A stretch of 64,000 bases of DNA from Candidatus Pacearchaeota archaeon (GTDB taxonomy: Archaea > Nanobdellota > Nanobdellia > Pacearchaeales > GW2011-AR1). A model generated the notes under the pieces. The model was given only the letters and a program-made list of their open reading frames with translations. It was not told the origin of the DNA and did not search any database. The stretch is from contig JALUUW010000003.1 of assembly GCA_027021195.1 (NCBI GenBank), positions 4,843 through 68,842 of the forward strand, written 5' to 3'. Shown here piece after piece: positions 1-23,567 of this stretch; the stretch's first letter is position 1; every line of letters begins with the position of its first letter. The position numbers were made by a program, and so were the translations under genes.

Positions 1-47
1 CTGAAACTATTGAACCTGGGAAGATAGAAATCGCTATCTTTAATGAT

Positions 48-587
48 TTGAAAGAGTTTACAAAAAAATATGAATTTGAAAATAATAAATCTCTTCCTTT
101 TTTTGTTGTAGGATTTGCTGGAAAGAACGGCAGAATTTTTATCTTGGATAAAAAACTTTTTCCAAAACAAGGACACAGAGAAGAAGAATTTGAAAGAGTC
201 GTTGTTCATGAATTATGCCATGTATTTATCAGGAGAATGCTACACCCCAAACATACTTTCATTTGGATAGAGGAAGGGCTATGTGAATTTTTGTCTTTTG
301 GAGATTATCCTTTAAAAATAAAAAAAATAGTGGATTTTAGAGAGATTGAAACTTCTGAAGGATGGAGAAAGCATAATGCCTATCAACAAGCAAAAGGTTT
401 TTTTAAATATTTATCTAAAAATTATGGGGATAAAAAAATAGTGGAATTTATTAAAAAAATTAAAGTTACTTCTGAGAGAAAGGCATTTAAAGAGGTGTTT
501 GGAAAAGAAATAAATGAAATCCAAGAAAAGTTCTTTAACACCTTGAAAAATGAAAAAACTCTATCATCCGGGAATTCCTTGCAATGA
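48..587 (+). CDS. Putative Zn-dependent peptidase-like protein (HExxH...E motif: VVVHELCHVF...EEG). It may begin upstream of the window.
   Basis: ORF-track translation contains HELCH with a downstream Glu (gluzincin-like pattern). It overlaps the start of the downstream rSAM gene by 38 nt, which is operon-like. Confidence 0.4.
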   Translation: MKEFTKKYEFENNKSLPFFVVGFAGKNGRIFILDKKLFPKQGHREEEFERVVVHELCHVFIRRMLHPKHTFIWIEEGLCEFLSFGDYPLKIKKIVDFREIETSEGWRKHNAYQQAKGFFKYLSKNYGDKKIVEFIKKIKVTSERKAFKEVFGKEINEIQEKFFNTLKNEKTLSSGNSLQ

Positions 588-1716
588 GAATATAGTTCAA
601 AAAGATTTAGAAAAGAGTCTTATTAATTTTAGAAATAAGCGTATAGAGATTGTTGAATGTAATGAAGGGTTTGGAGTTTTTGATAAAGACTGGTTTTGGG
701 CAACAAAAGAAGAGTTAGATTCTCTTAAGAAATGCCCAGATATCTCAATAAGGTATTTTTTAGATAATGAAAAGTTCAATCATGAAGGATGGTTTTTTTA
801 TAACCCAATAGAACTTGGTATAGAATTAACAAGAGAATGTAATCAGCTGTGTATTCATTGTTGGAATGAATCTTCTTCAAGGGATACTAAAATGCCTTTG
901 AAGAAGGCAAAAGAAATTATTCAGGAATTTAGAAAAGGAGGAGGACAGAAAATAAAGATATCTGGTGGAGAACCATTATCATATTCTTCTTTAGATGAAT
1001 TTTTATTTTTTTCAAAAGAAGTTGGGATAAAAAAAGTAGATATGACATCTAATGGAGTGTTAATGAATAGGGAAAAAGCAAAATTTTTATCTACTCATCT
1101 AACAAATATATGTATAAGTATTCATGGTTCTAAATCAGATATACATGACGATATAACTTACAATAAAGGAAGTTTTGTAAAATCTATTAAAGCAATAGAG
1201 CATCTTCAGGAAGAAGGGTTAAACCCCATAATTAATTATACTGTTATGCAGAAAAACAAAAAGGACATTGCAGACATGATTGAATTAGGGAAAATTCTTA
1301 ATGTTAACGGGATAAAATTCAGTTGTTTAAAAAAGATTGGAAGAGCGAGAAATTTAGAGGTAATTTCTAAAGAAGAGGTAAATACATTAAGAAATTTAAT
1401 ATATACTAAATCGAAAGAGCTTGGAATTGAGTTAGAGAAGAGTGAATTGTATCCTGCAGGATATGTTCAAGGCATTAGTCAATCAAAATTTTATGGATGT
1501 AATGGATTAAGAACCCAACTATATATCTCTTCAGAAGGCAACGTTTACCCATGTAGTTTAATAAATGAAAGTATTGGAAACATTTACCAAGATTCTTTAT
1601 TTAATTTATGGAGAAGTAAAAAAGCTCAGGAATTTAGAAGATTGGATAATTGTATTAAAAATGATTGCAAAATAATTAGGGATTGTGGGAGAAAGTGTAG
1701 GGCAAGTTTGAAGTAA
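550..1716 (+). CDS. Radical SAM enzyme with C-terminal SPASM-like Cys-rich domain and ~90-aa N-terminal extension
   Basis: CNQLCIHC (CX3CX2C) radical-SAM cluster motif. A GGEP-type SAM-binding segment is present (ISGGEPL). The C-terminus has multiple Cys (CNG...CSL...CIKNDCKIIRDCGRKC), typical of SPASM auxiliary-cluster domains. Confidence 0.8.
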   Translation: MKKLYHPGIPCNENIVQKDLEKSLINFRNKRIEIVECNEGFGVFDKDWFWATKEELDSLKKCPDISIRYFLDNEKFNHEGWFFYNPIELGIELTRECNQLCIHCWNESSSRDTKMPLKKAKEIIQEFRKGGGQKIKISGGEPLSYSSLDEFLFFSKEVGIKKVDMTSNGVLMNREKAKFLSTHLTNICISIHGSKSDIHDDITYNKGSFVKSIKAIEHLQEEGLNPIINYTVMQKNKKDIADMIELGKILNVNGIKFSCLKKIGRARNLEVISKEEVNTLRNLIYTKSKELGIELEKSELYPAGYVQGISQSKFYGCNGLRTQLYISSEGNVYPCSLINESIGNIYQDSLFNLWRSKKAQEFRRLDNCIKNDCKIIRDCGRKCRASLK

Positions 1717-1793
1717 CGAGGGAGAGTTAAATATAAAATATATTTTGACCATGGAAGAAAAATAGGGTATGGGAAGCTAAAAAAAGAGCAGAT

Positions 1794-2372
1794 ATGGAAG
1801 GTTATGAGAATATAAAATTTGTTAAAGCTGATATCAATTCCTTACCCTTTGACTCAGAAACGTTTGACGTTGTCATAGTAGGAAATGTCTTCTCTTTGAT
1901 AGAAAATAAAAAAATTGCATTAAAGGAATGCATGCGTGTTTCTAAAAAAAATGGATTTATTATTGTAATCCCTATGTATTACATAAAAGAACCTTCGAAG
2001 GAACTTATAAAGAGAGTTTCCAAAGCCCTTAAAGTCGACATTGCTCCTATGTATCGATCAGATTGGATAAATTTCTTCTCAATATCTGGATTAGAAATAT
2101 ATTGGTCAAAAGATTTCAAATTTGACCACATAGACAATAAAAAAATAATTTCCTTTTGTGAGGAGATTTTTAATAAAGAACATTTACGAAACTTGACTAA
2201 ATCGGCATATGAGAAACTATTTGAAGTTTATCAGAAATTTATGTTTCTATTTCGCGATAATTTATCTCATATGGGATATATCATACTTATTTTATCTAAA
2301 AGAAAGTTGTGGGAAGATCCAGAACTCTTTACATCCAGAGAAAATATCTCCCTTGGAAACTTTAGTCAATAG
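1794..2372 (+). pseudogene. Class I SAM-dependent methyltransferase fragment lacking the N-terminal SAM-binding motif I (likely truncated or remnant)
   Basis: The translation starts inside the MTase fold (NIKFVKADINSLPFDSETFDVVIVGNVF = post-motif II/III region). Upstream in frame there is a stop at 1746–1748, no ATG and no GxGxG motif. Only 78 nt separate it from the upstream gene. Confidence 0.4.
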
Positions 2373-2390
2373 AATAAAATATGGTAATTC

Positions 2391-3416
2391 TTATTTGATT
2401 CCTTTTTCTAAGAACTCAAAATTGTTTGTTTCTGAGTCAATTACAACTTTTGTACCAATAGGGATAGTTAGCTGAGGATCGGTATGACCTATATCCACTC
2501 CAAACAAAATGGGAAAATTATATTCTTTTGTTCTCTCCAGTAACTTCTTTTTTAGCATTTCTATATCTTCTTCATTATATCTAAAAGGTCTGCCAAAAAT
2601 TAGCCCTCTGATTTGTTTAAATACTCCTAAAATGTTTAACTGCTCCAGATACCAGTCAACATAAGGAAGGGGTTCCCCTTCATCAAATGTCTGACCTTCT
2701 GGCAATTCTAAAAATAGAATCTTATCTGTATGATCTGGCCAGTATTTTGTACCTGGCAAATGGACTATTGATGTGAGACATCCTCCTATAATTTTACCTT
2801 CTGCTTTTCCTCCTCGCAACCATTCAAAACCTTTATTTTCTTTCAATTTTCTTGGCCTTGTAAGATCCAACTTTTTACTCCAATCTAAGAATTCATCAGT
2901 CCAGCTTTCAGAAGGAGATACTTTTCCTATGGGTTCATCTGATGCTACTGCCTTATTAAAATAATCTAAAGTATATTTAAGAGGATGAGGGTATTCTCCA
3001 AATTGAGTTATAATACATGGTCCATAAAAAGTTATAAGATTGGATTGCGTATGGAGTGCATAGTGCAAGATAGAGATATCTGAATAACCACAGAATATCT
3101 TTGGATTTTGTTTTATTTTCTCAAAATCTAAATAATTTAGAGTATGGGTTGCTACTGTTCCTCCAATTAAAGATATAATTGCTTTTATATCTTTGTCAAG
3201 AAAAGCGTCCATTATGTCTTTAGCCCTTTCTTCTGCAGGAGCAGATTCCCATCCGTTAACTTTTCTTGCTGTAGGAAACTCTTTAATTTTATAACCCTCA
3301 GATTTTAGAAATTTAACCGCATTGTCAAGTCTATGGGGAAAGTTCAATCCAGACGATGGAGCGATTATTGCTATTGTATCTCCTTTTCCAAGTCGTGGAG
3401 GCTTAATTAGTTCCAT
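2391..3416 (-). CDS. LD-carboxypeptidase (peptidase S66, MccF-like)
   Basis: GDTIAIIAPSS N-terminal motif, GYSDIS Ser-nucleophile motif and a C-terminal His/Glu region. Length and architecture fit the S66 family. Confidence 0.7.
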   Translation of the reverse strand: MELIKPPRLGKGDTIAIIAPSSGLNFPHRLDNAVKFLKSEGYKIKEFPTARKVNGWESAPAEERAKDIMDAFLDKDIKAIISLIGGTVATHTLNYLDFEKIKQNPKIFCGYSDISILHYALHTQSNLITFYGPCIITQFGEYPHPLKYTLDYFNKAVASDEPIGKVSPSESWTDEFLDWSKKLDLTRPRKLKENKGFEWLRGGKAEGKIIGGCLTSIVHLPGTKYWPDHTDKILFLELPEGQTFDEGEPLPYVDWYLEQLNILGVFKQIRGLIFGRPFRYNEEDIEMLKKKLLERTKEYNFPILFGVDIGHTDPQLTIPIGTKVVIDSETNNFEFLEKGIK

Positions 3417-3623
3417 TAATTTTTAACAGAGGTAAAACTTTAAATATTTATTGGATTCCCTCTAACAACCCCTTCATTCAAAATAAAAGAAAAAGCCATT
3501 ACAGATATGACTATGATGCTAATTTGAATTAAGGACAAGCAAACCTTCGGCCCTTTTTTTGGGATGGGTTAATGAAAACAATGGCATTTATTCTTGTTTA
3601 TGGGTATTTACTAAGAATAATGG

Positions 3624-3839
3624 CTAAGGAAAACAGCCTAATTTTTCATGTGCTTTTATTAAAAAATCCCTGAAATCTTTTTTGCTTTCCCATACAGGAT
3701 TTAACTTGTTCCTGATTAAATCAAAATCTATCTTCTTTAATCTTCTAATCTCTGCTAATTCACTTATCATTCTTTCGTACTTTTCTTTTGATATTTTTGC
3801 CATTTCCATAATAGCTAAATGGGGCTGATATTTATACAA
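3624..3839 (-). CDS. Hypothetical small protein (71 aa), last gene of the minus-strand rSAM operon
   Basis: ORF-track ORF, tightly spaced (23 nt) after the upstream gene on the same strand. No recognisable motif. Confidence 0.3.
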   Translation of the reverse strand: MYKYQPHLAIMEMAKISKEKYERMISELAEIRRLKKIDFDLIRNKLNPVWESKKDFRDFLIKAHEKLGCFP

Positions 3840-3862
3840 TTTTCTAAATAAAACAGGGAATC

Positions 3863-4531
3863 TTATATCTTAATTCTTTTAACATATTCTATACATTCAT
3901 TAATTAGAGGAATTATATCTGGATTATGCTTCCACGTTTCCATTACTCTCTTTCTTAATTCTTTATGTTCAGCATAGCCTTTATCTTCAACAAACCATAG
4001 ATCTCTACACTCTAAATTTAAGATTGCAGTTAAAGACTCATTAACATACTCTATTTCTCTAAACCCTAGCTGATTTCTAATTAAAGGCAAATGTGTTTTT
4101 TCCATCTGTAAATGCATTAATTCATGTCCACATGTTCTTAAATTTTGCAACAGAGGTCTTCGAATTGAGACCATGAAAGAATCCTCCTCCACATTATAAG
4201 GACATCTTCCAGCAGTTGTAATATATGCATTAAATTCATTTGAATATATTTTGTGTTTGGTAATTTTTTCTAACCTTTCAAAAAACCTGTTATTTATTTT
4301 TCCCCAAGAGTTCTGCAATGTTTCTAAAAAGATGTCTAAATGGCCTGAAGAATATAATGGTTGAATATACTGTTCAATCTCTTCCCTACATTCTTCAAAT
4401 TTTCTATTTTTCCACCTCTGTAGGACTGACCCTCTTTCTAATTCATTCTCCCATGGATGCTCGTAGTTGCTAGTTTCCCATATATTCCAAAGGTCTTTTT
4501 CCTTATCAAACTTAAAAATTACTTTTGACAT
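3863..4531 (-). CDS. HExxH-motif protein, putative metallopeptidase (222 aa)
   Basis: RTCGHELMHLQ...REIEYVNE gives an HExxH plus downstream Glu. It has the same motif class as ORF 48..587. Confidence 0.4.
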   Translation of the reverse strand: MSKVIFKFDKEKDLWNIWETSNYEHPWENELERGSVLQRWKNRKFEECREEIEQYIQPLYSSGHLDIFLETLQNSWGKINNRFFERLEKITKHKIYSNEFNAYITTAGRCPYNVEEDSFMVSIRRPLLQNLRTCGHELMHLQMEKTHLPLIRNQLGFREIEYVNESLTAILNLECRDLWFVEDKGYAEHKELRKRVMETWKHNPDIIPLINECIEYVKRIKI

Positions 4532-4547
4532 ATTCTTTTTTTGAAGG

Positions 4548-5072
4548 TTAAGCTTTTTGTTTATTTTTTAATAGTAATAAAATAACATTATGTTTATGGG
4601 GGGGCAAATTATCATGCTCTTCAATGGGGGTCTCATACATTCCTTCCTTCATTATTTCCCAATCAGAATATAGGTTTTTTAATTGTTTTAATGAAGGATA
4701 AAACCTATTTTGTGCATTTCTTGCCATAGGGTCTTTATCTGAAAAACAGATGATAAAAGTATGTCCTTGCTCAGAGGTATGTGTTTGTATCTTTTTTAAA
4801 ATATTTTGTGCAGTTACCTTATCTAAAAAATGCAAAACTAACGAAGCAATTATTAAGTCATATTTCTCTTTGAATTCAAAATTTGTTATATCTTCATTAA
4901 AGAATTTAAAATTTTTCTGGGAGATTTCCATAGGTCTTTTATCTACTCCAAGAACTTTTACGCCTTGTTTGGCAAATCTGAGAGATTTATGCCCTTTCCC
5001 ACAACCCAGATCCAAAACATTTTGAGGCTGTAGTTCTTTAAGATATTCTTTGACTTTATCCCTTATTATCAT
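4548..5072 (-). CDS. Class I SAM-dependent methyltransferase
   Basis: Motif I VLDLGCGKG, motif II-like KVLGVD and motif III-like DLIIASLVLHF. Confidence 0.7.
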   Translation of the reverse strand: MIIRDKVKEYLKELQPQNVLDLGCGKGHKSLRFAKQGVKVLGVDKRPMEISQKNFKFFNEDITNFEFKEKYDLIIASLVLHFLDKVTAQNILKKIQTHTSEQGHTFIICFSDKDPMARNAQNRFYPSLKQLKNLYSDWEIMKEGMYETPIEEHDNLPPHKHNVILLLLKNKQKA

Positions 5073-5108
5073 TTATTAATTCTTTAAGTTTATTTTATTT
5101 AATTCTTT

Positions 5109-6170
5109 CTAATCTTGTGAGCTTCCCTGCACATATTCTTTAAAACACATAGGGTCTTTGGCCATATAATCTCCTGTTACTGCATAAGCAATTGCCCTAC
5201 ATCCTCTGCAGTGCACCACTTTATCACAAAGAGTATTCTCCCTCATTTTATTCAAATCTCTTAAATTTTGCATTACCTTGTTCTCTAAAATTAAATTACC
5301 TATTCCGTCACTTATGCGACCTATTTTAATAGGAAGTCTTCTACAAGGATAAACAGTTCCGTCCGATAATATTGAAAGCATTCTAAATCCTGCAGAACAC
5401 CCCCAAAGATATTTATTTTGCTCCTTTGCTGTTTTTATTACTTCGTTTTCTTTTTCCAATATTTGCCAAAGAACATCAGATTGAAGGACATTAATCTTAT
5501 CTCTATATTTTTCATTTAGTCTTTCAGTTTCTTTAACCATCTCGTAGATTTCTTTAGCATTAATAAATTCAGGATCTTTAATTCCTAAGTTTGAATCTGG
5601 ATTATAAGTTTTAAAACCCACTTTTTTAGCTCCTGCTAAAATTGCATTTTGGATAACATCCTCAAACTCTTTTTTATTAGACTGCATAAGAGTCATGGCT
5701 ACTGTAACATTTAAGCCTTCTTTTGAAGCATTTCTTATCCCTTCAATTGCCATATCATATGCAAAATCTTTTCTCCTAATTTTATTATGTGTGCGCTTAG
5801 ATCCATCAAGAGAAACTTGTATTGCTTCAACTTTTTGCTCCAAAAGTTCTCTAGCTTTTTTAGGAGTAATTAATGTGCCATTAGTTAACAAATTTGTTAT
5901 AACTTTTTTCTTACAAGCATATTCTAAAATTTCAAGATGATCTTCCCTCATTAAAGGATCTCCTCCCGAAATTGCGATTCTGGGTATCATCTCCCACCTT
6001 TTTGCTGTCTCTGCTAAATCATCTATCATTGATTTTACTTCATTTAAACTCATTAAATTATCATCTTGGATGTGGTCTACATTCCCTTCGTTGTTATGAT
6101 AACAATGGGAGCATTTAAGATTACAATCATTTGTGGAATCCCCTTGAATATATAAGTGTCTTTTAGCCAT
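5109..6170 (-). CDS. Radical SAM enzyme with C-terminal SPASM-like domain
   Basis: CNLKCSHC (CX3CX2C) near the N-terminus, ISGGDPL SAM-binding segment, and a C-terminal Cys-rich region (CSAG...CRRL...CDKVVHCRGC). Confidence 0.8.
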   Translation of the reverse strand: MAKRHLYIQGDSTNDCNLKCSHCYHNNEGNVDHIQDDNLMSLNEVKSMIDDLAETAKRWEMIPRIAISGGDPLMREDHLEILEYACKKKVITNLLTNGTLITPKKARELLEQKVEAIQVSLDGSKRTHNKIRRKDFAYDMAIEGIRNASKEGLNVTVAMTLMQSNKKEFEDVIQNAILAGAKKVGFKTYNPDSNLGIKDPEFINAKEIYEMVKETERLNEKYRDKINVLQSDVLWQILEKENEVIKTAKEQNKYLWGCSAGFRMLSILSDGTVYPCRRLPIKIGRISDGIGNLILENKVMQNLRDLNKMRENTLCDKVVHCRGCRAIAYAVTGDYMAKDPMCFKEYVQGSSQD

Positions 6171-6212
6171 TACAAATTAAGAGCAGTTTTTCTAAATCTA
6201 TTTGGAATTTTT

Positions 6213-6338
6213 TTATTCTAAAGAATAGACATCATCTGCGTAACATGCATCTGGACCACAAGCATCGCAAGGGTCACAGTGATAACGATCTTTCTCTTGA
6301 GACGCTTTATTAGTTATATAAGAACTAATATCTAACAT
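6213..6338 (-). CDS. Candidate RiPP precursor peptide, 41 aa, MLDISSYITNKASQEKDRYHCDPCDACGPDACYADDVYSLE (not in the supplied ORF track)
   Basis: I translated the minus strand by hand: ATG at 6338, TAA at 6213–6215. It carries 4 Cys in a 12-residue acidic core. It sits 42 nt upstream of, and on the same strand as, the rSAM/SPASM gene 5109..6170. Confidence 0.5.
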   Translation of the reverse strand: MLDISSYITNKASQEKDRYHCDPCDACGPDACYADDVYSLE

Positions 6339-6390
6339 ACCCTTAAGAAAAGCTTGTTCCTCAGCAGTTCTCTCCAGTTTATTTGTTTTT

Positions 6391-6400
6391 GCTATAAAAA
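6391..6400 (-). promoter_or_regulatory. TATA-like box (TTTTTATAGC on the minus strand) ~55 nt upstream of the small Cys-rich ORF
   Basis: AT-rich TTTATA element preceded by a purine-rich BRE-like stretch. Position relative to the ATG is compatible with a short 5' UTR. Confidence 0.25.
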
Positions 6401-6583
6401 GCCAACAACCTTAATATATTTAAATTTTATTGTAATGGATTTATTTTGTAGTGCCTAAGTAACTTAAAAAGTTATTTATTTGCAGATTTTTCAGAAGAAA
6501 CAACCTCAAACTCAGTTGAGCCTATATAATTTCCATCTACATTAAACACTGTTTTGCAAATCCCTAATTGTAATGATTTGTCA

Positions 6584-6615
6584 AAACAAAATCCTCTTCA
6601 TTTACATTTCTTGAA
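6584..6615. repeat. 32-nt exact copy of an internal coding segment of the giant gene 11026..14769 (second copy at 11601..11632)
   Basis: AAACAAAATCCTCTTCATTTACATTTCTTGAA is identical at both loci. At 11601–11632 it encodes NVNEEDFVYT on the minus strand. Confidence 0.8.
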
Positions 6616-6639
6616 AACAAATTGTTTCATTTAATCCAT

Positions 6640-6740
6640 ATACCCCGCAGCTCTGCTGCGGTTGGGAGCTTCACTTCAGAACGAGATGGGGCAGAAGTCA
6701 TGACTCCAGAATTAGCGGATGTGTCTTAACAGGAAGTCTT
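6640..6740. ncRNA. GC-rich structured patch, candidate small RNA (unclassified)
   Basis: Local GC is well above the window average. It contains the perfect hairpin GCAGC-TCT-GCTGC flanked by CCCC...GGGG. No ORF with a start codon spans it. Confidence 0.25.
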
Positions 6741-6801
6741 TCTCCTCTGGAAGAATACGTTCTTCTCTCAAAAACCCTTCCCTATCAGCTATTCTAAGGG
6801 T

Positions 6802-7386
6802 TCACTCAGATGTTCTGCTGATTTCATTCAGATATTCTGCTAATTGCCTCATATCATCAGGCTTCCCCTCTAATTCAGAATAATATTTATTGTCCATTTC
6901 AAAGTAAAACCTATTCACGAAATCAATAGTCTCTTTGTATTTGCTTATGCCTTTTTTCTCAACTAATTTATTAAAGCAGTCAATATATCTCATTAGGGCT
7001 TCAGTCAACTCCCTTGTTTCCTCGCTCTCCTTAAGCAGGGCTTTATCCATATTAGAATATGCTTTATCCAAAAATTCAATTACTTCTTTATAATTCTCAA
7101 CCCCTTTTTTTTCCACCAATTTGTAAAAAGCACACGCATATTCTGTTAAAGCCATAGTCAGGTCCCTGATTTCCGGGTCTTTGATTCTATGTATCTCTTT
7201 CTGGAATCTATCCATATCATCAAGTTCTTTTTCTATTGTCTCTTGGAAAGTTTGGTTTTTTATTTTTGACCGAAAAATGATTCCGTGTTCCACTAGACCT
7301 TTATGGAATCCTCTTAATCCTTTCAATATCTTTTCATTTAATTTAATTTTTTCTGCTTCTATCATTTTAATCTTACATAGTTCCAC
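6802..7386 (-). CDS. Hypothetical helical protein with an internal tandem repeat (~45-aa unit: LT.AL..Y...F.KLVEKKG...YKE.I.F...)
   Basis: Two clearly similar segments in the translation (LTMALTEYACAFYKLVEKKGVENYKEVIEF / LTEALMRYIDCFNKLVEKKGISKYKETIDF). Confidence 0.4.
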   Translation of the reverse strand: MELCKIKMIEAEKIKLNEKILKGLRGFHKGLVEHGIIFRSKIKNQTFQETIEKELDDMDRFQKEIHRIKDPEIRDLTMALTEYACAFYKLVEKKGVENYKEVIEFLDKAYSNMDKALLKESEETRELTEALMRYIDCFNKLVEKKGISKYKETIDFVNRFYFEMDNKYYSELEGKPDDMRQLAEYLNEISRTSE

Positions 7387-7438
7387 CTACCCTTATGCAT
7401 TAATAAAAAAGACAAAAAAAGAAATTATCTTTCAGGTC

Positions 7439-7564
7439 TTATTTCTTTTCAGATCCTTCAGTCATTTCTAAAACCTTCTCATTTGGCATAGAGGTTTCTA
7501 CAAGACCCAAATGGAAATTCTCAAGACCTTCCAACATTTCCCTGTTAAATCCACATAGGGGCAT
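7439..7564 (-). CDS. Small ORF (41 aa, MPLCGFNREMLEGLENFHLGLVETSMPNEKVLEMTEGSEKK) paralogous to residues ~18–40 of the adjacent protein 6802..7386
   Basis: Manual minus-strand translation. LEGLENFHLGLVE resembles LKGLRGFHKGLVE of the neighbouring gene. Confidence 0.25.
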   Translation of the reverse strand: MPLCGFNREMLEGLENFHLGLVETSMPNEKVLEMTEGSEKK

Positions 7565-7624
7565 TTTCTTTTCCTCCTAATTTAGTTAACTATAATATAT
7601 AATTACTTTATATAAACTATTCTA

Positions 7625-8668
7625 TTGGATAATTTTACAAAAAAGAAATATTTATATATTGGTACTTATTTTATGTATAAAATGATGAAATTGGATGTAT
7701 ATGACCGGAGAATTTTGGAGGTTTTAATAGAAAACTCCGAAGAGCAAATAAGCGCTATTGCCAAAAAGATAAGGCTCAGAAGAGAAAACGTTAACTATCG
7801 GATAAACCGCATGGTTAAATCAGGTCTGATAAAAGAATTTAACACAATCTTAAATGAAAGAGCGTTGGAGCTTTCCCACTATGTTGTTTTTGTAGAACTG
7901 ATTAAACTGGAAGAAAAAACAGAGCTGGAAATTATAGATTATCTCAGGAATAGCTCCTTTGTGAGCTGGATAGGAACTTCAGCAGGGAGATGGAGCCTGG
8001 TTTTTGATATAATAGCCTATGATAAAGGCTCAAATTTTGAAAAGATATTAACGGAGTTTCTCAAAAGATTTGGCGGAGATCATATTGAAAACTACGAGGT
8101 TTTGAGGCTGAATAAAAGAGATTATTTTGCATCAAAGTTAATTGGCAAAGAAAAATATTTCCATGAAAATGCTGAAAGCAAGGCCTCTCTTAAAAGATTG
8201 GACAATATAGATCTCAGAATACTTTCATTGCTAAACAAAAATTCAAGAAAAACTTTGGTAGAAATATCTTCTAAAATAGGCTTGACTCCAAATGGAGTTA
8301 ATAATAGGATTAAGGGCCTAATCAATAATGGCATTATAACAGGATATACGATTTCCATTAATTGGAAGAAATTAGGCTATGAGTGGTTCACAATACAAAT
8401 TAAGCTGCACAAGTATGGTGAAGAAGTATATGCCAAAATGGAATCTTTTTTCAGGAATCACAAGAAAGTGGTGTTTTACTACAGATATCTTGGAGGAAGC
8501 TGGGACTATGATATAGGGGTTTTGGTTCAGAATTCAGACGAATTAAGGGATTTTATCAATGAATTCAGGAGAAATCTTTCGGATGTTTCCAAAATCTCTG
8601 ATGTTTTTTTGACTCTTGAAGAAATAACAGGATATAAAATGCCTGAAGGGGTTTTTAATCCTTCTTAA
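7625..8668 (+). CDS. Lrp/AsnC-family transcriptional regulator with two tandem HTH_AsnC-like units
   Basis: LDVYDRRILEVLIENSEEQISAIAKKI and LDNIDLRILSLLNKNSRKTLVEISSKI are both Lrp-type HTH segments, each followed by a regulatory-domain-like region. Confidence 0.6.
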   Translation: MDNFTKKKYLYIGTYFMYKMMKLDVYDRRILEVLIENSEEQISAIAKKIRLRRENVNYRINRMVKSGLIKEFNTILNERALELSHYVVFVELIKLEEKTELEIIDYLRNSSFVSWIGTSAGRWSLVFDIIAYDKGSNFEKILTEFLKRFGGDHIENYEVLRLNKRDYFASKLIGKEKYFHENAESKASLKRLDNIDLRILSLLNKNSRKTLVEISSKIGLTPNGVNNRIKGLINNGIITGYTISINWKKLGYEWFTIQIKLHKYGEEVYAKMESFFRNHKKVVFYYRYLGGSWDYDIGVLVQNSDELRDFINEFRRNLSDVSKISDVFLTLEEITGYKMPEGVFNPS

Positions 8669-8689
8669 TTCGGCAACGAGATTATGCCC

Positions 8690-10177
8690 TCAGCTGTTAT
8701 ACCCCTCAACTCCGATAAAATTTGTTGAGCCTCCGCAGTCTCCAAGAGAGATACATGCATTATTCATCTCTTTCTTCCATGACTCTGAAAGGCACTCACA
8801 GTTTTTCACGCACTTTTCCTTTCCAGTCAGCCCTTTTTCAAATACTACTGTGCATTGAGTGTCTGCTATAGAGCATAAAGATTCAGCCTCAGTGTCCTCT
8901 TCCCAAAAATTAAATCCAGGGGCATTTTCAGGAACGCATCCTATTGAAGACCATTTGCAGTCTCTCCTGTCTTTATTCTCGCAGTCTTTTTTGGTTGTTT
9001 GAGAGGAGCAGTCCTGCCATTTATTTACTCTGCATGCAGCTGTCTTAAATCCGTCAATGTCGTCCTGGACACAGACTTCCTGCCTGAAATCCGCGCACGG
9101 CTCTATGCTTACCTCTCCGTTATAACACACCAGCCTGAAATGCCTGCTTCCAGGAAGGCTTTTGTCTGTCCCGCTTGCATCTGCGCACCATGTTTCCCCA
9201 TGCTTATATTTTTTTCCAAGATAATTGCAGCTTAAGTCTCTGCAGATGTTGTCTCCGTAAGTTGGCTTTACTCTGTCCTTTCCTCTTTCATAGGATTTGC
9301 AGGTGCTTCCCAAAAAATAATCGCAGTTGCCGCACCCGGATGATCCGGCATTTCCGTCTGCTGAACTAAATCCGCAGCTCTTTTCCTTTCCATAAGCCTT
9401 TGTCCAGTAGTTTTTGTCTTTTATTTTTGAGGCATCATAAATATTCGCAGGATTTCCGCAGCTGTCAACAAAGAAGACTTCATCTCTTCCTTCAATGCAC
9501 GTTGTTCTTTCTGAGGGTCCGCAGTTTGTTGCAAGCTCTTCTGCAGAGCATAAAAGCCCCTCGTAAAACTCTACATTGGAATCAGGAGAGCTCGCTTCCA
9601 TTTTTCGGCACTCTCTTTTTGTTATGAACTTGCATGTTCTTGCCATCTCTTCAGGATCCTCAAACACACATGCTCCTTTGACATCTGAAGTAGCAGAAGC
9701 AATGCATTCTATCTCGCTTCCTATGTTTGTCCTGAAGTCAGTTTCGAGCCCGTAAAGGGACGAAAGCCTTTTGCATCTCGTCTGCGTTACAAAAGCAGCC
9801 TGGTCTCCTATCAGGCAGCACCCAAGAGAGCATTGGGGGATTTCATCCATCTTCCCTTCGTTCCATACCCCTCCTGAATCCTCGCATACTTTTTGAGGAG
9901 TGTTTTCCATGCAGGTTCCCTCCTGGCTGTCTATGCAGGTTCCAAGCTTGCAATAAGAGGTCGCCTCGCAGGAAGTCGGGACTTTTCTGTATGAGCTGTC
10001 GCATTTATCCTGAGGAGCGTTCTGGCACCATGCATTGTTTACTGTTTTTTCGCAGCAGTATGAAACCTCTCCGACAGCTGAGACAATTGCAATATATGCT
10101 ATGACTGCCAAAAAAATCAGCGCAACTCCTGCTGCTAACCCTTTTTCAAAAACATTATTTGTCTTGTTTCTTCCCAT
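8690..10177 (-). CDS. Secreted Cys-rich protein (495 aa), N-terminal signal anchor. It is a paralog of the N-terminal half of the 1247-aa protein.
   Basis: N-terminal hydrophobic helix and ~50 Cys. It shares colinear blocks with 11026..14769 (e.g. CSLGCCLIGDQAAFVTQTRCKRLSS vs CQKGCCVLGDNAQFVTEKRCEKLSS, and C-terminal CISLGDCG). Confidence 0.6.
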   Translation of the reverse strand: MGRNKTNNVFEKGLAAGVALIFLAVIAYIAIVSAVGEVSYCCEKTVNNAWCQNAPQDKCDSSYRKVPTSCEATSYCKLGTCIDSQEGTCMENTPQKVCEDSGGVWNEGKMDEIPQCSLGCCLIGDQAAFVTQTRCKRLSSLYGLETDFRTNIGSEIECIASATSDVKGACVFEDPEEMARTCKFITKRECRKMEASSPDSNVEFYEGLLCSAEELATNCGPSERTTCIEGRDEVFFVDSCGNPANIYDASKIKDKNYWTKAYGKEKSCGFSSADGNAGSSGCGNCDYFLGSTCKSYERGKDRVKPTYGDNICRDLSCNYLGKKYKHGETWCADASGTDKSLPGSRHFRLVCYNGEVSIEPCADFRQEVCVQDDIDGFKTAACRVNKWQDCSSQTTKKDCENKDRRDCKWSSIGCVPENAPGFNFWEEDTEAESLCSIADTQCTVVFEKGLTGKEKCVKNCECLSESWKKEMNNACISLGDCGGSTNFIGVEGYNS

Positions 10178-10178
10178 T

Positions 10179-10967
10179 TTACACTAAAACTTCATCAACT
10201 CCGTATCCAGGAGGCCATGCAAGGCTTCTTGAAGCAAACTGGAATTTATTTCCGCTGTTGAGGTCTGTTAAAATATAGATTGTAGTGCCGTCGGATTGTT
10301 TTTTCTTCTCAACTTTCAAATCACGGTAATAGTTCATGTAGGTTGTTGTTTCAGCATCTCCGTATCTTGTTTCCCATGCAATTATGCTGTTTGCAATACT
10401 TAATAGTTCATAAAGATTATTGTTCAGGACTACTCTTAAATTGTCATAGCTTTCTGAAGATTCTTTTGTGAGAGTTAAGGAGTTGCTGAATGTAGCGACA
10501 ATTCTTTTTGGAAGCAGCTCAACATCAGGCTCTCCCTGCTTTAAGCTTACTTTATACCCTCTTTTCTCATAACTCTCTTTCATGGAATCAAAGCACTCTT
10601 TTGCCTTTCCTCTTATGTCTTTTTTTATCTCAGACTCAATGTGCTTTTTCAGCATTGGCTGCTGCACCACGCATGTTTTGTAGTACTCCTCAGTGTAGCA
10701 AAGATATTCTACTTTTTCATCATTATACAAAAAATAGTGTTCTGGCTTCAGGCTGCCACCCTGCATTGAAAGCCTTTCAACAGAATTTTTAATATCCTCT
10801 TCCATGCAGTTTTGAATAAATGCAGACGGATTCATGCTCTCGAGCCACAAATTAGACCCTATCTTTGGATAAAACAAGTAAGATAAAACACCTATAATCA
10901 CAATCATTATTGCAATTATGATGAAAATCGTCACTTGCCCCTTTCTTTTCCATGATATTTCCCGCAT
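10179..10967 (-). CDS. N-terminally TM-anchored protein (262 aa), paralog of 14771..15601
   Basis: Motifs shared with 14771..15601: QVTIFII (TM), SMQGG, YLCYT, PML, CFD. It lies 2 nt upstream of the Cys-rich gene. Confidence 0.5.
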   Translation of the reverse strand: MREISWKRKGQVTIFIIIAIMIVIIGVLSYLFYPKIGSNLWLESMNPSAFIQNCMEEDIKNSVERLSMQGGSLKPEHYFLYNDEKVEYLCYTEEYYKTCVVQQPMLKKHIESEIKKDIRGKAKECFDSMKESYEKRGYKVSLKQGEPDVELLPKRIVATFSNSLTLTKESSESYDNLRVVLNNNLYELLSIANSIIAWETRYGDAETTTYMNYYRDLKVEKKKQSDGTTIYILTDLNSGNKFQFASRSLAWPPGYGVDEVLV

Positions 10968-11025
10968 TTTTATTTAAAGGAAATCTGATTTATAAATGTT
11001 GATAGTTTTTAATGTTTTTAATAAA

Positions 11026-14000
11026 TTAAATTGATTCCGGCCTTAATATAATTGCACAGCCAGGATTTGTATTTCCTCCAAGATCTTCGCATTTGATGTA
11101 ATGCCTCTTTCCAGACTCCCACTCGCTGGTATGGGTTCTTGAAAATACATCTGTCATAGGCTTTGCATCCTCTCCTCGAATGTCAAATCCGCATCCATTA
11201 AAACTGTAATAGCATTTTGCATCTTCGTCTGTTATTACCTTTAACTCTCCCTCGCTGTAAGCCCTTACTATTTTTGGAGCTTCAGTGTCAAGCTCTAAAG
11301 TGAATACTGCATTTCCATAAGCAGTATTTCCTGCATCGTCTTCGCACTTTACATAAATATTGTAGTCTCCTTTCATCATAGTGTTGAAGTTCTGCTTATG
11401 CCTCCTGGAGAAGCTCTCAAAAAACAGAGTCATGTCATCATATCCTGAGAAACTGTAATAACAGGAAGACTTTCCATTCCTCGCCCCTCCGGAAGTCTCA
11501 ACTTCAAGGTCTACTGAGATTGGCTCGAACCATCTCTTGATTTTTCCCTGAGGGGTTATTGAGGTTATGTTAAGATTTGTCTCTGAAACATAGAGTGTAT
11601 AAACAAAATCCTCTTCATTTACATTTCTTGAAGTGTTCTCTGGAGGAAGCCATGGCTGGTCTTTGCACCTGATGTAAAAATTGTTTTCTCCTTCTGCAAG
11701 CCCTTTAAGAGTGGTGCTGCACTGCCATCCCAACAGCTCCCTCTCTGTTATTCCTGTTTTGCAATCCATTGAATTGCTCATTTCCTCATAGCTTTTTCCG
11801 CTTTCAGTGCTGTACCTGCATTCAGCAGGCTCACTTAGGTAAATCTGAAGAGGCGTTTCTGTAACATTATATTTCAGGAAACTTTCATCCTCTGGAACTG
11901 CAACTGTTCTTGAATGGTCTACAGCAGTTGTGTCTGGCCCTGAGTTAATGCAGAAATTCACCGTATACTCGTCAATATTGTAGTTTCCATGATAGTCCTT
12001 GCACTTAACATACATATTCATGTTTCCAAACATCTCTCTTATGTCTCCTGCAACATCATAGACGCTTAAGCTGTCCAGGCTTGGCATTGAAAATGAAAAA
12101 GTGTGGTTGAGAGTGAATGCATTTTGCTCAACAGGGTATCCTCTCATTTCGTCATATTCTGTTTTCTGGAAATCAAACTTGCACTGCGCAAATTCATCTG
12201 TTTTTAGGCTGAAGCTGACAGGAGTGAATTCAGGGATGCAGTTTCCGTTTTCCCTTCTTATCTCAACTCTTTTTGCATCTTCGTTATTGAACTTGTAGCC
12301 CTCGTCAATATCTCCTGCAGAAATTACAGGAGGATTGCTTTCATAAGGGATGCTCTCGCAGACAGGGTTTTCTGTTTCTTCATTAAGGATTCTGCATGCC
12401 TGCCCAAGGCTCTCGCATCTGTATCTTGTGCAAGGCATTCCTTTTTCAGCAAGCTCGTTGCATCTTTTGCAATTCTCTCCTCCTGCAGGAGCCTGCCATG
12501 GCATGCATGTAAACTCAACAACCCTTTCTTTTGTCTTTCCCCATCCAACAACTATGACATATACCATTATTATTACTGCTGCTGCCAGTGCGTATGTTCC
12601 AAAATTCAATCCCCATTTGAGCCATCCGACCTTCATTAGGCCAAGTATTCCTCCTGCAACCCCTCCTGCTACTGTCAGGACTGTTGCTGCATTTCCAGAC
12701 CTTCCCAAAGACTGGGCAATAAATGCTCCTGCAACTGTTCCTATTGCAAACCCTGCTGCTGCCCATGCGAATGCTCCTATGGATGTATATGTGGTAGAAA
12801 CAACTGCTTCAGATCCTGCAAAAATTGTCTTTGTTCCCAATAATGATGTTGTTGTTTCATAAGCTCCATAAGTGTAGGTGGTAGTTCCTATTCCCAAATG
12901 GCTAATGGCCATAATCAAGGTTCCAGCTCCTCCTGAAACTTCTCCAAGCTGCTTTATTACAGCCTGTATTTTATCCTCTTTAGGCTTTTTGCCAGAATTA
13001 CCGCTTATTGAAGAGATGTAATCATCAATTTCCTGGGGCTTTACATACTGGCCTTCTACAGGATCTGCATAATCCTTATATCTTTCCCATGAAACACTTG
13101 GAGACCGCGTTACTTTAATGTTATCGCTTCCCTCTCCAATATAATTGATATAGCTTCCGCAATCTCCGAGGCTGATGCAAAGGTCATTCATCTGCTCTGC
13201 AAAAACTCCTTTCTCGCAATTGCAGTTCTCAATGCACTCCCACTTTCCTCTTGAGTTTTTTTGGTATATGACAGTGCATTTTTGATTTGCCATTGCGCAT
13301 ATGCTGTCTGCAATAGAGCTTTCCCTTTGCCTGAACCCTCTTGGATATCTTCCAACGCAGACATCAAAGCTGAACCCGTCATCAATATTAATGTTTTTAA
13401 TCATGCAGTGCTTGTTTTTATTGCATTTTTCAGCCATGTTTCCCTGTGAATTGTAATCAAGGCACTTTGTAGCTTCGTTCACAACGCATGAGGCTACTGA
13501 AAAGCTTTTTCCGTTTTCCTCTATTTCTGATTCTGTGCAAAGCCCCCCTCTATAGTCACTGCATCCCTCTGTCTTTACTTCTCCATCAATACATATTTTT
13601 CTCCAGTGCCTGCTTCCTGCAGGATCTTTCCCTTCTCCTATATAAGAGTCATAAGCACACCAGCTCTCCCCGTTCTTTCTCTCTTTTCCGCCTGTCTCAG
13701 GAGATGCAGGGCAGTTTTTGTTTTTGCATATATAATCTCCGTCTTTTGCTTTTTTTCCTCCTGCCTCGTCTGAAGGCGCGCACATGCTTCCAAGGAAATA
13801 ATTGCAGTTTCCGCACTCTTCTGACTGAATATTGTCTGAATCAGGGTTGCAGCTTTCCTGTTTGCTTAACACCTTTCCGTTATTCCACGAAAAATCCCTG
13901 TCTGAGGAATAGATGTTTTCCCTGTTTCCGCAGGAATCAATCCAGTAAATCTCGTCTTTTCCCTCAATGCAGCTTATGCTTGCCTGCCTTTCACATTCAA

Positions 14001-15601: not shown

Positions 15602-15706
15602 ATTTACTTAAATATTTTGCTGCTTATAAATCTTGTTGGATATGCTGTCTTTGTCTTCTGTCCAGACTCTCCCCTGTTATTTTCCGGATATTGATTTCCC
15701 TTCAAG

Positions 15707-16447: not shown

Positions 16448-16588
16448 AGTACGGCTTGTTTTTTAAGTATTATTGTAATTAAGGATAAGGTATTTATTTA
16501 AACTTTGCCCACTCTTTCATAAGATGTTAAGTGAGCTCAGATTATTTTTTACAGAAGGAAGATTATTGAGCTAATTAAGAGATATAAA

Positions 16589-20064: not shown

Positions 20065-20443
20065 TGGGGTATATAACAAGATAAGGATGATTGCGGGCTT
20101 TATGATAAAGCAAAAATTTTCCAGATAATGCAAATACTCTGCAATTATATTTAGAAACAATGAAAAGATTTGGCGAGGAGATGATGTTTTTCGCAACATA
20201 GGTATTGGAACTGTTTGCTCTTCTTGTGGAAATCATTATGAATTTGATTTTTACCATGATAAGAAGATGTTAGAAAGACTTGCTGAAGGTCCGGAACAAG
20301 AATTGCGTTGAATGTTTTGTTCAGGATGGCTCTATCCGCTTAGCTATGAGGAAGGGTATCTGCCTATATCACTGACAGAATTATGCATTCGTGTTCTTTC
20401 TAAATAAAAAAACTTTATTAACCATATATTTCTTTACATACTT

Positions 20444-21775: not shown

Positions 21776-21778
21776 TTT

Positions 21779-23048: not shown

Positions 23049-23098
23049 TAAAATAAGAGCTAAAAGATTGTTTTAAATTTTATTGCATTCAGCCACAC

Positions 23099-23497: not shown

Positions 23498-23567
23498 CTC
23501 ACATAAAATTAATAAGAAAAAAAGTTTTTAAAATTTCTCTAAACAAAAGCCAATAAGCCTTGTTTTA

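Follow-up and report, generated by a model that had tools for sequence, protein, structure and literature searches.

A probable four-gene DPANN cassette with a Cys-rich peptide and two radical SAM/SPASM enzymes beside a backbone MccF-like S66 peptidase gene

The first 1716 nucleotides of the window (the whole 64,000-nucleotide stretch of Candidatus Pacearchaeota DNA analysed here) are, with a probability of about three in four, the downstream half of a four-gene DPANN operon in the order radical SAM (rSAM)/SPASM-A, precursor, HExxH gluzincin and rSAM/SPASM-B; the S66 peptidase gene and the methyltransferase (MTase) relic which follow are separate backbone genes. This left cassette, which has not been described before, is a small system of tiny DPANN archaea and probably cross-links a short Cys-rich peptide. 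The features of the locus are collected in Table 1. The open reading frames of the initial annotation, 48..587 (plus strand, with HELCH), 550..1716 (plus, with CNQLCIHC), 1794..2372 (plus) and 2391..3416 (minus), do exist and their Pfam assignments hold, but the first is an incomplete gene and the third a relic.

Table 1. Features of the locus in window coordinates
Feature	Position	Strand	Size and remarks
rSAM/SPASM-A, left cassette			435 aa
Precursor, left cassette			59 aa
HExxH protein, left cassette gene 3	1..587	+	3' 195 codons of a 226-aa gene
rSAM/SPASM-B, fourth and last gene of left cassette	550..1716	+	388 aa
Cassette/backbone junction	1717..1793		MTase homology begins abruptly at nt 1773
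MTase relic, UbiE/ArsM-like class I	1773..2372	+	residual ORF 1794..2372, 192 aa
MccF-like S66 serine peptidase, backbone gene	2391..3416	-	341 aa, intact
Spacer upstream of S66	3417..3623	-	207 nt
Right-hand cassette	3624..6338	-	conserved cassette, not paralogous to left
Small ORF, right side	3624..3839	-	71 aa
Right HExxH protein	3863..4531	-	222 aa
Right TehB-like MTase	4548..5072	-	found in this locus only among right-type loci
Right rSAM/SPASM	5109..6170	-	353 aa
Right precursor	6213..6338	-	41 aa, core D-x-Y-H-C-D-P-C-D-x-C-G-P-D
Double-HTH Lrp/AsnC-type regulator	7625..8668	+	divergent from right cassette

The same arrangement is found in two other assemblies, L001 (ENA) and L002 (Logan), which show 1 mismatch over 11.7 kb and 2 over 6.6 kb, and since three assemblies share the junctions these are not assembly artefacts. 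Both sequences place the two further genes of the left module, rSAM-A and the precursor, outside the window and within 1.6 kb directly upstream of it. It had been anticipated that a Cys-rich precursor might sit upstream of the window, and extension of the contig did reveal the 59-aa Cys-rich frame there. The HExxH gene starts 93 nt upstream of the window (2963..3643 in L001). The reading of 48..587 as a whole gene was rejected because the frame is open up to the window edge, as far as window base 3, and the true start lies upstream.

The left cassette was found in about a dozen distinct loci, by name from Woesearchaeota, Pacearchaeota, Nanoarchaeia or Nanoarchaeota, with identities of 50-59% for rSAM-A, 50-56% for the HExxH protein and 38-61% for rSAM-B, and with a precursor of 58-67 aa. 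Across these loci the rSAM-A and precursor genes share a start/stop overlap (ATGA), the HExxH and rSAM-B genes overlap by 35-38 nt, and rSAM-B always comes after the HExxH gene. The cassette is not always complete, as one locus (L013) has the HExxH gene and a short rSAM-B with neither rSAM-A nor precursor nearby. It contains no transporter or immunity gene. Flanking direct repeats, an integrase and a tRNA were all looked for and none marks the cassette borders, so that an insertion here looks the same as a deletion or a rearrangement.

The precursor consists of a variable leader of about 44 residues and a nearly invariant end, the last 15 residues reading Y-S-C-D-A-x-C-D-N-C-H-C-A-T-Y/F. Mean pairwise identity is 30% in the leader versus 84% in these 15 residues, and C47, D48, A49, C51, N53, C54, H55, C56 and A57 are invariant in the alignment. 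Variants exist beside the main alignment.

Both left rSAM enzymes carry conserved Cys residues beyond the CX3CX2C motif, nine in rSAM-A and six plus two in rSAM-B. In rSAM-B, which matches the Pfam models Radical_SAM (4.9e-22) and SPASM (6e-11), the motif CNQLCIHC supplies C97, C101 and C104, six of the additional Cys lie in the SPASM region, and the other two (C11 and C37) are invariant in an N-terminal extension of about 85 aa. The rSAM-B family is small, with 20 matches at E<=1e-10. Neither the C-terminal extension of rSAM-A nor the N-terminal extension of rSAM-B gave any match in Pfam or in a PDB profile search, so that a RiPP recognition element is not confirmed.

None of the three rSAM enzymes of the locus reaches the cut-off of a curated NCBIfam family: PapB scores 54-95 bits versus 340, AlbA 92 versus 850, PqqE 66-81 versus 381 and MftC 78-85 versus 265. 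The top matches are NirJ2 for rSAM-A and AhbD for rSAM-B (120 bits versus 500). These matches, to enzymes of the haem and tetrapyrrole type, could be taken to mean that the rSAM enzymes act on a non-peptide substrate, and that the Cys-rich frames, whose CxxC-rich core could bind metal, are Fe-S or metal-binding accessory proteins. We give this interpretation very little credence: the NirJ2 and AhbD matches reach 100-120 bits versus cut-offs of 500, tetrapyrrole genes are absent nearby, and the variable leader, invariant core, translational coupling and dedicated peptidase are all characteristic of RiPP precursors.

The third gene of the cassette encodes a protein with the gluzincin-type signature H101-E102-x-x-H105 followed eighteen residues on by E123 in W-I-E-E-G; HExxH, RR and WxEEGxC are invariant in the family alignment. 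Pfam gives BSP at 29.5 bits versus a gathering score of 23.8, and Peptidase_MA_2 is below threshold. The AlphaFold model (pLDDT 91.6) has as best PDB folds the catalytic domains of M9 collagenases and M1 aminopeptidases (prob 1.0, TMq 0.5-0.66), at Foldseek E-values that are weak, at best 0.0098. The predicted fold is thus that of a gluzincin-like peptidase.

It should be considered that the HExxH proteins of the locus could be alpha-ketoglutarate/Fe(II)-dependent oxygenases of the ChlB and PflC type, instead of leader peptidases, and would then carry out beta-hydroxylation of Asp or His in the core. Such enzymes (the HExxH domain of ChlB, BpmH, PflC/PosC; IPR026337), for a long time annotated wrongly as metallopeptidases, are small zincin-like HExxH proteins that hydroxylate Asp and His and in many cases are fused to an rSAM maturase or encoded next to one (PMC12636437). 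Both cores at this locus are Asp-rich, the left one has an invariant His, and the ChlB domain (8s5f) is among the fold matches of the left protein. However, 8s5f comes at just rank 41 (TMq 0.32, prob 0.44), far behind the M9 and M1 peptidases. Besides flagellinolysin no NCBIfam model matches either HExxH protein (E<=0.1 or 0.01), a result to be read on the assumption that NCBIfam covers the oxygenase family, for which PMC12636437 cites the InterPro entry. Furthermore, the invariant Glu found 18 (left) or 25 (right) residues past the second His has the spacing of the third zinc ligand of gluzincins, and an O2-dependent enzyme would be odd in archaea which are likely anaerobic. An oxygenase is therefore unlikely, although less so than the other alternatives weighed here.

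For the left cassette we propose that each of the two SPASM-type enzymes would put cross-links on the precursor core and that the leader would then be cut off by the HExxH metallopeptidase; the chemistry, the succession of the steps and the site of cleavage all belong to this proposal. The cross-links would most plausibly be Cys-derived thioethers of the sacti- or ranthipeptide kind. Their type is a guess, and from the alternation of Cys and Asp in the core an attractive one is the PapB type, as PapB makes Cys-Asp thioethers (PMC10739248, PMC9413430). The general layout is also that of ranthipeptides and sactipeptides (PapA/PapB of freyrasin, SCIFF, subtilosin AlbA), in which a Cys-rich precursor with a C-terminal core lies beside a SPASM-type rSAM and a clustered protease. 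The left cassette differs from these systems in scoring below the PapB and AlbA cut-offs, in having no recognised RRE, transporter or immunity gene, in placing two different SPASM enzymes around precursor and peptidase, in being confined to DPANN archaea and in combining an invariant core with a variable leader.

Downstream of rSAM-B the cassette gives way to the backbone. Homology to the full-length S66-linked MTase starts 57 nt past the rSAM-B stop codon, with an in-frame stop at 1746-1748, and 1794..2372 covers only positions 44-95 of the 95-position Pfam model Methyltransf_11. Ten full-length relatives of 273-282 aa possess SAM motif I (E-I-G-T-S-T-G-F), and all ten align to the relic only from their residue 83-86 on; about 83 N-terminal codons including this motif are missing, and no match to them was found anywhere in the window or in L001. 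The fragment, which had been counted as a member of the left module, is by these alignments a 5'-truncated backbone gene: the left cassette, or a rearrangement carrying it, probably severed the MTase at about nt 1773, leaving the 3' two-thirds. The remaining frame is intact (192 codons with an ATG start) and its identity to the relatives lies the usual 8-13 points under that of S66, so the relic is either recently truncated or still used.

The full-length MTase is convergent to S66 in at least 10 related loci that lack rSAM genes, and aaRS-like paralogues lie next to it there (synteny in L021-L034). The S66 protein has 20 relatives with 51-79% identity in a conserved neighbourhood, and no rSAM or HExxH gene was found in any S66 locus with several kb of flank. 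Conversely, S66 is present in none of the dozen or so left-cassette loci and in none of four right-cassette loci. Gene-order comparison thus makes S66 and the MTase an older conserved neighbourhood, which the left cassette appears to have cut into.

The S66 enzyme had been called MccF-like as opposed to LdcA-type, which is confirmed. It has both S66 domains (Pfam Peptidase_S66 N 1.3e-35, C 4.5e-29) and the triad motifs S112 (G-Y-S-D), E237 (L-E-L-P-E) and H311 (G-H-T-D). A phmmer search of PDB ranks B. anthracis MccF-like paralogues first (2e-62, 1e-54), then E. coli MccF (8e-45) and B. anthracis MccF (1e-44), far ahead of LdcA-type chains (5e-28, 1e-12, 2e-5), and the NCBIfam LdcA model gives 96.7 bits versus a cut-off of 378. 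MccF is the self-immunity serine peptidase for microcin C (MEROPS S66), and its known substrates are aminoacyl-nucleotides. A microcin C-type cluster was looked for and no heptapeptide gene was found, nor an MccB/ThiF-type adenylyltransferase (Pfam, larger ORFs between 1 and 10177). The present gene also differs from MccF in its archaeal host and in its conserved partners, the MTase and the aaRS-like paralogues.

On the other side of S66 lies the right-hand cassette, in a position where relatives have a gap of only about 770 bp. Its core trio of precursor, rSAM and HExxH protein recurs in four loci (L041, L044, L045, L046) lacking the MTase and S66, and in L046 an Lrp/AsnC-type counterpart with 27% identity to the regulator here is also divergent beside the cassette. 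The best curated match of the right rSAM is the archaeal ACGX-repeat system of methanogens (TIGR04340). The right precursor has D-A-C-G-P-D-A-C; however, it has no ACGX repeat array, and the rSAM scores 171.8 bits versus a cut-off of 400 (the left-cassette rSAMs about 62).

It had been suggested that the left genes are a mirrored duplicate of the right operon and that the S66 enzyme gives immunity or takes part in processing. Both modules do pair a Cys/Asp-rich precursor with an rSAM/SPASM enzyme and an HExxH protein, and the MccF-like S66 gene lies 207 nt downstream of the right module and co-directional with it. The proteins themselves are at variance with duplication. The two rSAMs are only 27% identical, a level that each also shows with rSAM-A (24-27%); the HExxH pair has no BLASTP match (E 0.32) and an hhalign probability of 4%; the MTase pair has none either (E 0.47), the subfamilies being UbiE/ArsM-like versus TehB-like, and the left MTase comes from the S66-linked backbone. 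The initial annotation took pairwise identity above background as the mark of paralogy, and since the values are no higher than background the duplication of the module is refuted. Nor is the order mirrored: on the map it is HExxH-rSAM-MT / S66 / HExxH-MT-rSAM, and transcription runs HExxH, rSAM, MT in the left module and precursor, rSAM, MT, HExxH in the right one. As S66 shares its strand with the right module, it is the left one alone that is convergent to it. As to immunity or processing, comparison lends no support: S66 and the cassettes do not occur together in other loci, S66 carries its own promoter-like box, and the known MccF substrates are unlike cross-linked peptides. Pairwise comparisons and synteny together largely refute the whole scheme, whose chance of being right is very small.

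A weaker form is that S66 was recruited here as the last gene of the right operon, not ancestrally, for instance to trim a C-terminal residue of the right peptide. S66 is downstream on the same strand with no strong terminator found between, and the right precursor has additional residues beyond its conserved core. Yet the spacer contains an A/T box, aataaatatttaaag, at about 3438-3452, roughly 25-35 nt ahead of the S66 ATG and at archaeal promoter distance, and a T-rich run following the 71-aa ORF; this position of a putative TATA box suggests that S66 is its own archaeal transcription unit, possibly leaderless. The other right-type cassettes all lack S66, and in L030 and L038 homologues of window 8690..14769 abut S66 with no cassette between. 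Recruitment is thus quite improbable. The GC content of the region is 29-33% versus 37%, and the apparent symmetry is therefore that of two accessory cassettes, unrelated to each other, which flank the backbone S66 gene within a single variable region of low GC.

The left peptide also has parallels among the precursors of PQQ (PqqA/PqqE/PqqD/PqqF) and mycofactocin (MftA/MftB/MftC/MftE), which are likewise short with a conserved C-terminal end and an aromatic last residue. The left cassette shares with them an rSAM/SPASM maturase, a dedicated peptidase, the lack of an exporter and a core more conserved than the leader; it differs in having no equivalents of PqqB/C or MftD/F and in the chemistry of a four-Cys core. 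An unchanging core behind a leader that drifts is typical of peptides with a cofactor-like or signalling role, such as PqqA, MftA and SCIFF, rather than of arms-race bacteriocins, and the peptide of these DPANN archaea may belong with the former.

Two undescribed DPANN radical SAM/SPASM peptide cassettes flank an unrelated but conserved S66-methyltransferase neighbourhood in this region (see the table) and truncate it in one case. The initial annotation, which saw one duplicated maturation system here, was a real observation put together wrongly. Its gene and domain calls were reproduced by the ORF list and by Pfam and NCBIfam.

Table. Features of the two cassettes and of the genes between them (window positions).
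Feature	Position	Strand	Evidence
HExxH protein, left cassette (HELCH; BSP/Peptidase_MA_2 match)	48..587	+	ORF list, Pfam
Radical SAM + SPASM protein, left cassette (rSAM-B)	550..1716	+	PF04055 4.9e-22; PF13186 6e-11, above gathering score
Class I methyltransferase fragment	1794..2372	+	matches model positions 44-95 of 95 (C-terminal half) only
S66 peptidase, both domains	2391..3416	-	PF02016 1.3e-35; PF17676 4.5e-29
71-aa ORF, right module	3624..3839	-	
HExxH protein without Pfam match, right module	3863..4531	-	
TehB-like methyltransferase, right module	4548..5072	-	
rSAM/SPASM protein, right module	5109..6170	-	
Cys-rich ORF (precursor), 41 aa, right module	6213..6338	-	

The reading frame of the left HExxH gene runs open as far as the window's first bases. 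Exact look-up of the rSAM-B protein identified two more assemblies covering this DNA: L001, which differs by 1 mismatch in 11.7 kb, and L002, with 2 mismatches in 6.6 kb. L001 reaches 3,056 bp upstream of the window. There the HExxH gene is complete and codes for 226 aa. Before it comes a 59-aa ORF at L001 2775..2954, MIKDIESVASEGALDTKNIGVLRIRNYCLTDRDYKKPDASDLAEYSCDAVCDNCHCATF, and farther upstream another rSAM/SPASM gene, the third of the locus, which codes for 435 aa (rSAM-A) and the stop codon of which overlaps the start of the peptide gene. A Cys-rich precursor just upstream of the window had been predicted, and the 59-aa ORF, conserved in relatives, bears this out. Farther into this upstream DNA, a stretch of 44 nt is directly repeated at L001 265..308 and 1389..1432 with 73% identity. 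An NYN-domain gene follows one copy and rSAM-A the other. The repeat holds a TATA-like T-T-(T/A)-A-A-A-T box followed by CTTTCGTTTGT, and it is probably an archaeal promoter element common to both genes.

About 25 proteins are closely related to the complete HExxH protein of 226 aa, with identities of 48-59%. An exhaustive profile search gave 12 representatives at E<=1e-30; when the threshold is relaxed to E<=1e-10 the number rises to 203. The neighbourhoods of the relatives keep the order of four genes, rSAM-A (431-436 aa), peptide (58-67 aa), HExxH (212-226 aa) and rSAM-B (376-389 aa), with identical start/stop overlaps, in genomes named Candidatus Woesearchaeota, Pacearchaeota, Nanoarchaeia/Nanoarchaeota and Diapherotrites, the Diapherotrites locus being the reduced one. 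The left cassette is a conserved operon with translational coupling; it codes for two SPASM radical SAM enzymes, for a precursor whose C-terminal core is invariant and for an HExxH protein of gluzincin fold. One relative's locus, L013, holds only the HExxH gene and a short rSAM-B gene.

In about a dozen loci the precursor ORF, of 58-67 aa, separates the rSAM-A gene from the HExxH gene. In the alignment the mean pairwise identity is 30% in the leader and 84% in the C-terminal 15-mer, which is nearly invariant and reads Y-[SA]-C-D-A-x-C-[DK]-[NS]-C-H-C-A-[TG]-[YF]-stop. While the leader drifts, this Cys4/His/Asp2 core is kept across the Woese-, Pace- and Nanoarchaeota-named genomes. A variable leader followed by a near-invariant C-terminus is the architecture of a RiPP precursor, as judged from the alignment, and the peptide is accordingly a putative one. 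A degenerate copy of the left cassette is present at L003 7500..7973 (the same as L018 7521..7994). Here rSAM-A has an internal deletion, after which its initial ~96 codons run in frame into the peptide; the resulting ORF of 157 aa keeps the ending ...YSCDAACDNCHCATY. At L011 6206..6259 there is a weaker second match to the precursor core (67% over 18 residues), some 270 nt upstream of the annotated precursor, which may be a second or decayed copy.

rSAM-B carries the radical SAM motif CX3CX2C as C97-N-Q-L-C101-I-H-C104, with the Cys residues kept in all of eight orthologues, and its SPASM region has six conserved Cys (C317, C335, C368, C373, C379 and C383). The canonical SPASM domain has seven, and one ligand may therefore differ from the canonical set. 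rSAM-A has the CX3CX2C motif and nine further conserved Cys. Both enzymes have an extra domain of ~85 aa, C-terminal in rSAM-A and N-terminal in rSAM-B (window 550..810). The latter is conserved in orthologues as M-K-K-L-H-H-P-G-T-P-C ... V-x-C-x-x-G-W-G with two invariant Cys, C11 and C37; it is shorter in L013, and it may be an extra metal site or a peptide-binding domain. A PqqD-like RRE was looked for in the two isolated extensions, which had no Pfam match at E<=10, and a profile of the rSAM-A extension had no match in the PDB. None of the curated NCBIfam models came near its cut-off with rSAM-A or rSAM-B: the best were NirJ2/AhbD with 113-120 bits against 500, and the PapB, AlbA, MftC and PqqE models scored far below these. 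For PapB (NF047865, cut-off 340) the right rSAM reached 94.8 and rSAM-A 54; the AlbA model (NF012164, cut-off 850) gave 92.5, and the ACGX family model (TIGR04340, cut-off 400) gave 171.8 with the right rSAM.

The HExxH residues H101, E102 and H105 of the left protein and E123, a Glu 18 residues past the second His, are invariant in 24 sequences, and the family also keeps R-R and W-I-E-E-G-x-C around its H-E-x-x-H. PF04450 (BSP) matches with 29.5 bits against a gathering score of 23.8. The AlphaFold model (pLDDT 91.6) has the catalytic domains of M9 collagenase and M1 aminopeptidase as top Foldseek matches, with probability 1.0 and TMq 0.5-0.66, the E-value being at best only 0.0098. The invariant downstream Glu, in the role of third zinc ligand, and the M9/M1-like predicted fold lead us to read the protein as a minimal gluzincin of clan MA(E), likely a leader peptidase. 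The less supported alternative is an alpha-ketoglutarate-dependent HExxH oxygenase (IPR026337), a class which hydroxylates Asp and His in RiPPs (PMC12636437); against this reading, the ChlB HExxH structure 8s5f came only at rank 41 in Foldseek (TMq 0.32, probability 0.44), and flagellinolysin was the sole NCBIfam match at E<=0.1 or 0.01, on the assumption that NCBIfam covers the oxygenase family. Profiles of both the left and the right HExxH family had no matches among PDB sequences.

With a peptidase in this place, the HExxH enzyme would remove the leader of the precursor, and the two radical SAM enzymes would install cross-links on its four invariant Cys. These would most likely be thioethers, and the Cys-Asp type, as made by PapB (PMC10739248, PMC9413430), is a reasonable guess. 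We infer that the product is cofactor-like or signalling and not an antibiotic of an arms race, because the core is invariant and ends in an aromatic residue, and because the left cassette has no exporter or immunity gene.

The initial annotation held the left and right modules to be duplicated mirror images of each other, and the pairwise alignments speak against this. The left and right rSAM proteins are 27% identical by BLASTP, which equals what either shows with rSAM-A (24-27%). The two HExxH proteins show no similarity by BLASTP and a profile-profile probability of 4% by hhalign, though the models of both are gluzincin-like, and the two methyltransferases have no BLASTP match and belong to unrelated subfamilies. 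Paralogy of the modules is rejected on these comparisons, and the gene order is neither mirrored nor matching in the order of transcription. What the modules share is a resemblance of kind, each having a Cys/Asp-rich peptide, one or more SPASM enzymes and a small metallopeptidase. Adjacent pairs of such cassettes are present in further DPANN loci (L003/L018, L009 and L043), which suggests that they collect in variable DPANN regions. Directly upstream of the degenerate left-type copy, L003 4652..7358 is another RiPP-like cassette, with an 81-aa peptide containing ...CEKPCVCVCVCRHG..., a 367-aa protein with a HEGAH motif, a 375-aa rSAM/SPASM protein and an 89-aa ORF which looks PqqD-like by eye. 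L009 12208..13511 and L043 2516..4553 hold a module of a 48-58 aa peptide, an rSAM and a GNAT protein near left-type or right-type HExxH genes.

The methyltransferase fragment had been counted as a member of the left module. A homologue convergent to S66 is found in 14 of 20 S66 loci, directly beside S66 in three of them (L021, L022 and L024) and 1-4 kb off in the others, and none of the S66 loci with usable flanks has an rSAM; the fragment belongs with the S66-linked backbone. After reconstruction of the frames in ten loci the relatives have 273-282 aa and a normal motif I (…K-I-L-E-I-G-T-S-T-G-F…). All ten full-length relatives align to the window only from their residue 83-86 onwards, starting at nt 1773, and the first ~83 residues, including motif I (E-I-G-T-S-T-G-F), have left no trace across the window or L001. 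The breakpoint is 57 nt past the rSAM-B stop codon, with an in-frame stop at 1746-1748. By this abrupt start of homology and the missing residues, 1794..2372 is what is left of a backbone gene, its 3' two-thirds, and not a cassette gene. It lacks motif I and the complete Rossmann fold of a functional class I SAM-dependent methyltransferase. A stand-alone short methyltransferase was considered and rejected.

The S66 gene is intact and has G-Y-S112-D, L-E237-L and G-H311-T-D, with the catalytic Ser, Glu and His assigned by motif and not by structural alignment. Against the PDB it ranks MccF and MccF-like chains at 2e-62 to 1e-44 and LdcA-type chains at 5e-28 to 2e-5, which is a ranking and not a phylogeny, and with the LdcA model NF008424 it scores 96.7 bits against a cut-off of 378; the MccF-like assignment made earlier therefore stands. 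Archaea have no murein, so a role in murein recycling is implausible, and a housekeeping LdcA was considered and rejected. The proposal that S66 is the immunity gene of the modules found no support. A metagenome scan with the protein gave relatives in 20 loci at 51-79% identity, and those with usable flanks contain no homologue of the three rSAMs, of either HExxH protein or of either precursor. No ThiF/MccB-like gene is present among the ORFs scanned from window 1 to 10177, and thus there is no linkage to a microcin C-type (MccA/MccB) cluster. S66 probably has its own promoter, as the spacer upstream of it is 207 nt long and contains an A/T box that precedes the ATG by about 25-35 nt. A scan for bacterial sigma-70 promoters and intrinsic terminators, models unsuited to archaea, gave counts at or below the shuffled expectation.

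In the relatives the scanned neighbours of S66 are the methyltransferase, aaRS-like paralogues, an EamA transporter and an S51 peptidase. The block is found on related low-GC archaeal contigs (L021-L034; for example L022 6959..12140, L024 6130..10271 and L030 6980..12398), with a methyltransferase of 274 aa, a ProRS-like paralogue (375-387 aa; 219 bits, cut-off 558) and an AsnRS/AsnA-like catalytic core of 378 aa without an anticodon-binding domain (147, cut-off 414); a HisZ-like protein, a second methyltransferase, the EamA transporter and the S51 peptidase are present sometimes. The aaRS-like and accessory genes (ProRS-like, AsnRS/AsnA-like, HisZ-like, second methyltransferase, EamA, S51) are absent from the window and L001. 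MccF hydrolyses aminoacyl-adenylate mimics, and by analogy the company of aaRS paralogues, which look tRNA-independent, and methyltransferases is suggestive of an aminoacyl-nucleotide link, while the same genes could simply be housekeeping aaRS genes. The most far-reaching proposal, to which we give about one chance in seven, is that the left product is a DPANN-specific peptide-derived cofactor, redox carrier or metal chelator and not an antibiotic, and that, separately, S66 forms an archaeal aminoacyl-nucleotide pathway, with its own hydrolase, together with the ProRS-like and AsnRS-core-like paralogues and methyltransferases.

The right module looks like an addition to this neighbourhood. 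In the relatives' loci L030 and L038, S66 has the homologues of window 8690..10177, 10179..10967 and 11026..14769 as direct neighbours, at a distance of only ~770 bp. The equivalent gap in the window measures 5.3 kb (3417..8689) and is filled by the right module, an ORF of 194 aa and a regulator of the double-HTH Lrp/AsnC type. The core of the module (precursor, rSAM at 61% identity and HExxH at 56-62%) recurs in four loci, L041, L044, L045 and L046, where neither a methyltransferase nor S66 is beside it. Its precursor core is conserved as D-x-Y-[HN]-C-D-P-C-D-x-C-G-x-D, and H136, E137, H140 and E165 are invariant in its HExxH family, which numbers at least 175 relatives and the more distant members of which are not always linked to an rSAM. 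In two independent loci, window 7625..8668 (+) and L046 2250..3242, a double-HTH Lrp/AsnC-type regulator is divergent from the cassette; the two are 27% identical (E 2e-30) and may control it. No homology was found between the 71-aa ORF and the small ORF filling the same gap in L030, or between orf194 and the 194-aa ORF adjoining right-type cassettes. Window 8690..14769 (-) holds three co-directional genes for proteins of 495, 1247 and 262 aa, and their GC content, 37-45%, equals or exceeds that of the remaining window. Cys is very frequent in the 495-aa protein, which has an N-terminal hydrophobic segment and no real Pfam match, and in relatives is partly like the 1247-aa protein (33% identity over ~490 residues).

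The first 8 kb, which hold both cassettes, S66, the methyltransferase relic and the Lrp gene, have a GC content of 29-33% versus 37% in the 49 kb of 15000..64000. This is consistent with window 1..8000 being a variable or acquired region. Direct or inverted repeats and att-like sites flanking the cassettes gave only short matches at chance level, the 44-nt repeat of L001 excepted. There is no tRNA near the cassettes (the sole one is at 53052), and Rfam gave no match at E<=0.1 in window 1..9000.

Neither cassette is captured by any family-level model of Pfam or NCBIfam and no description of either was found in the searchable literature, that on DPANN and Woesearchaeota rSAM RiPPs included for the left one. 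For annotation the lesson is that a "biosynthetic cluster" called by adjacency only would be wrong here, as it would take in the relic of a backbone methyltransferase along with an MccF-like peptidase which has conserved partners elsewhere. Genes retained by DPANN archaea are informative, because the genomes are tiny and the organisms host-dependent. The two cassettes would enlarge the set of RiPP families and the chemistry known from SPASM enzymes; a peptide cofactor or a host-interaction factor of DPANN symbionts may also be among their products.
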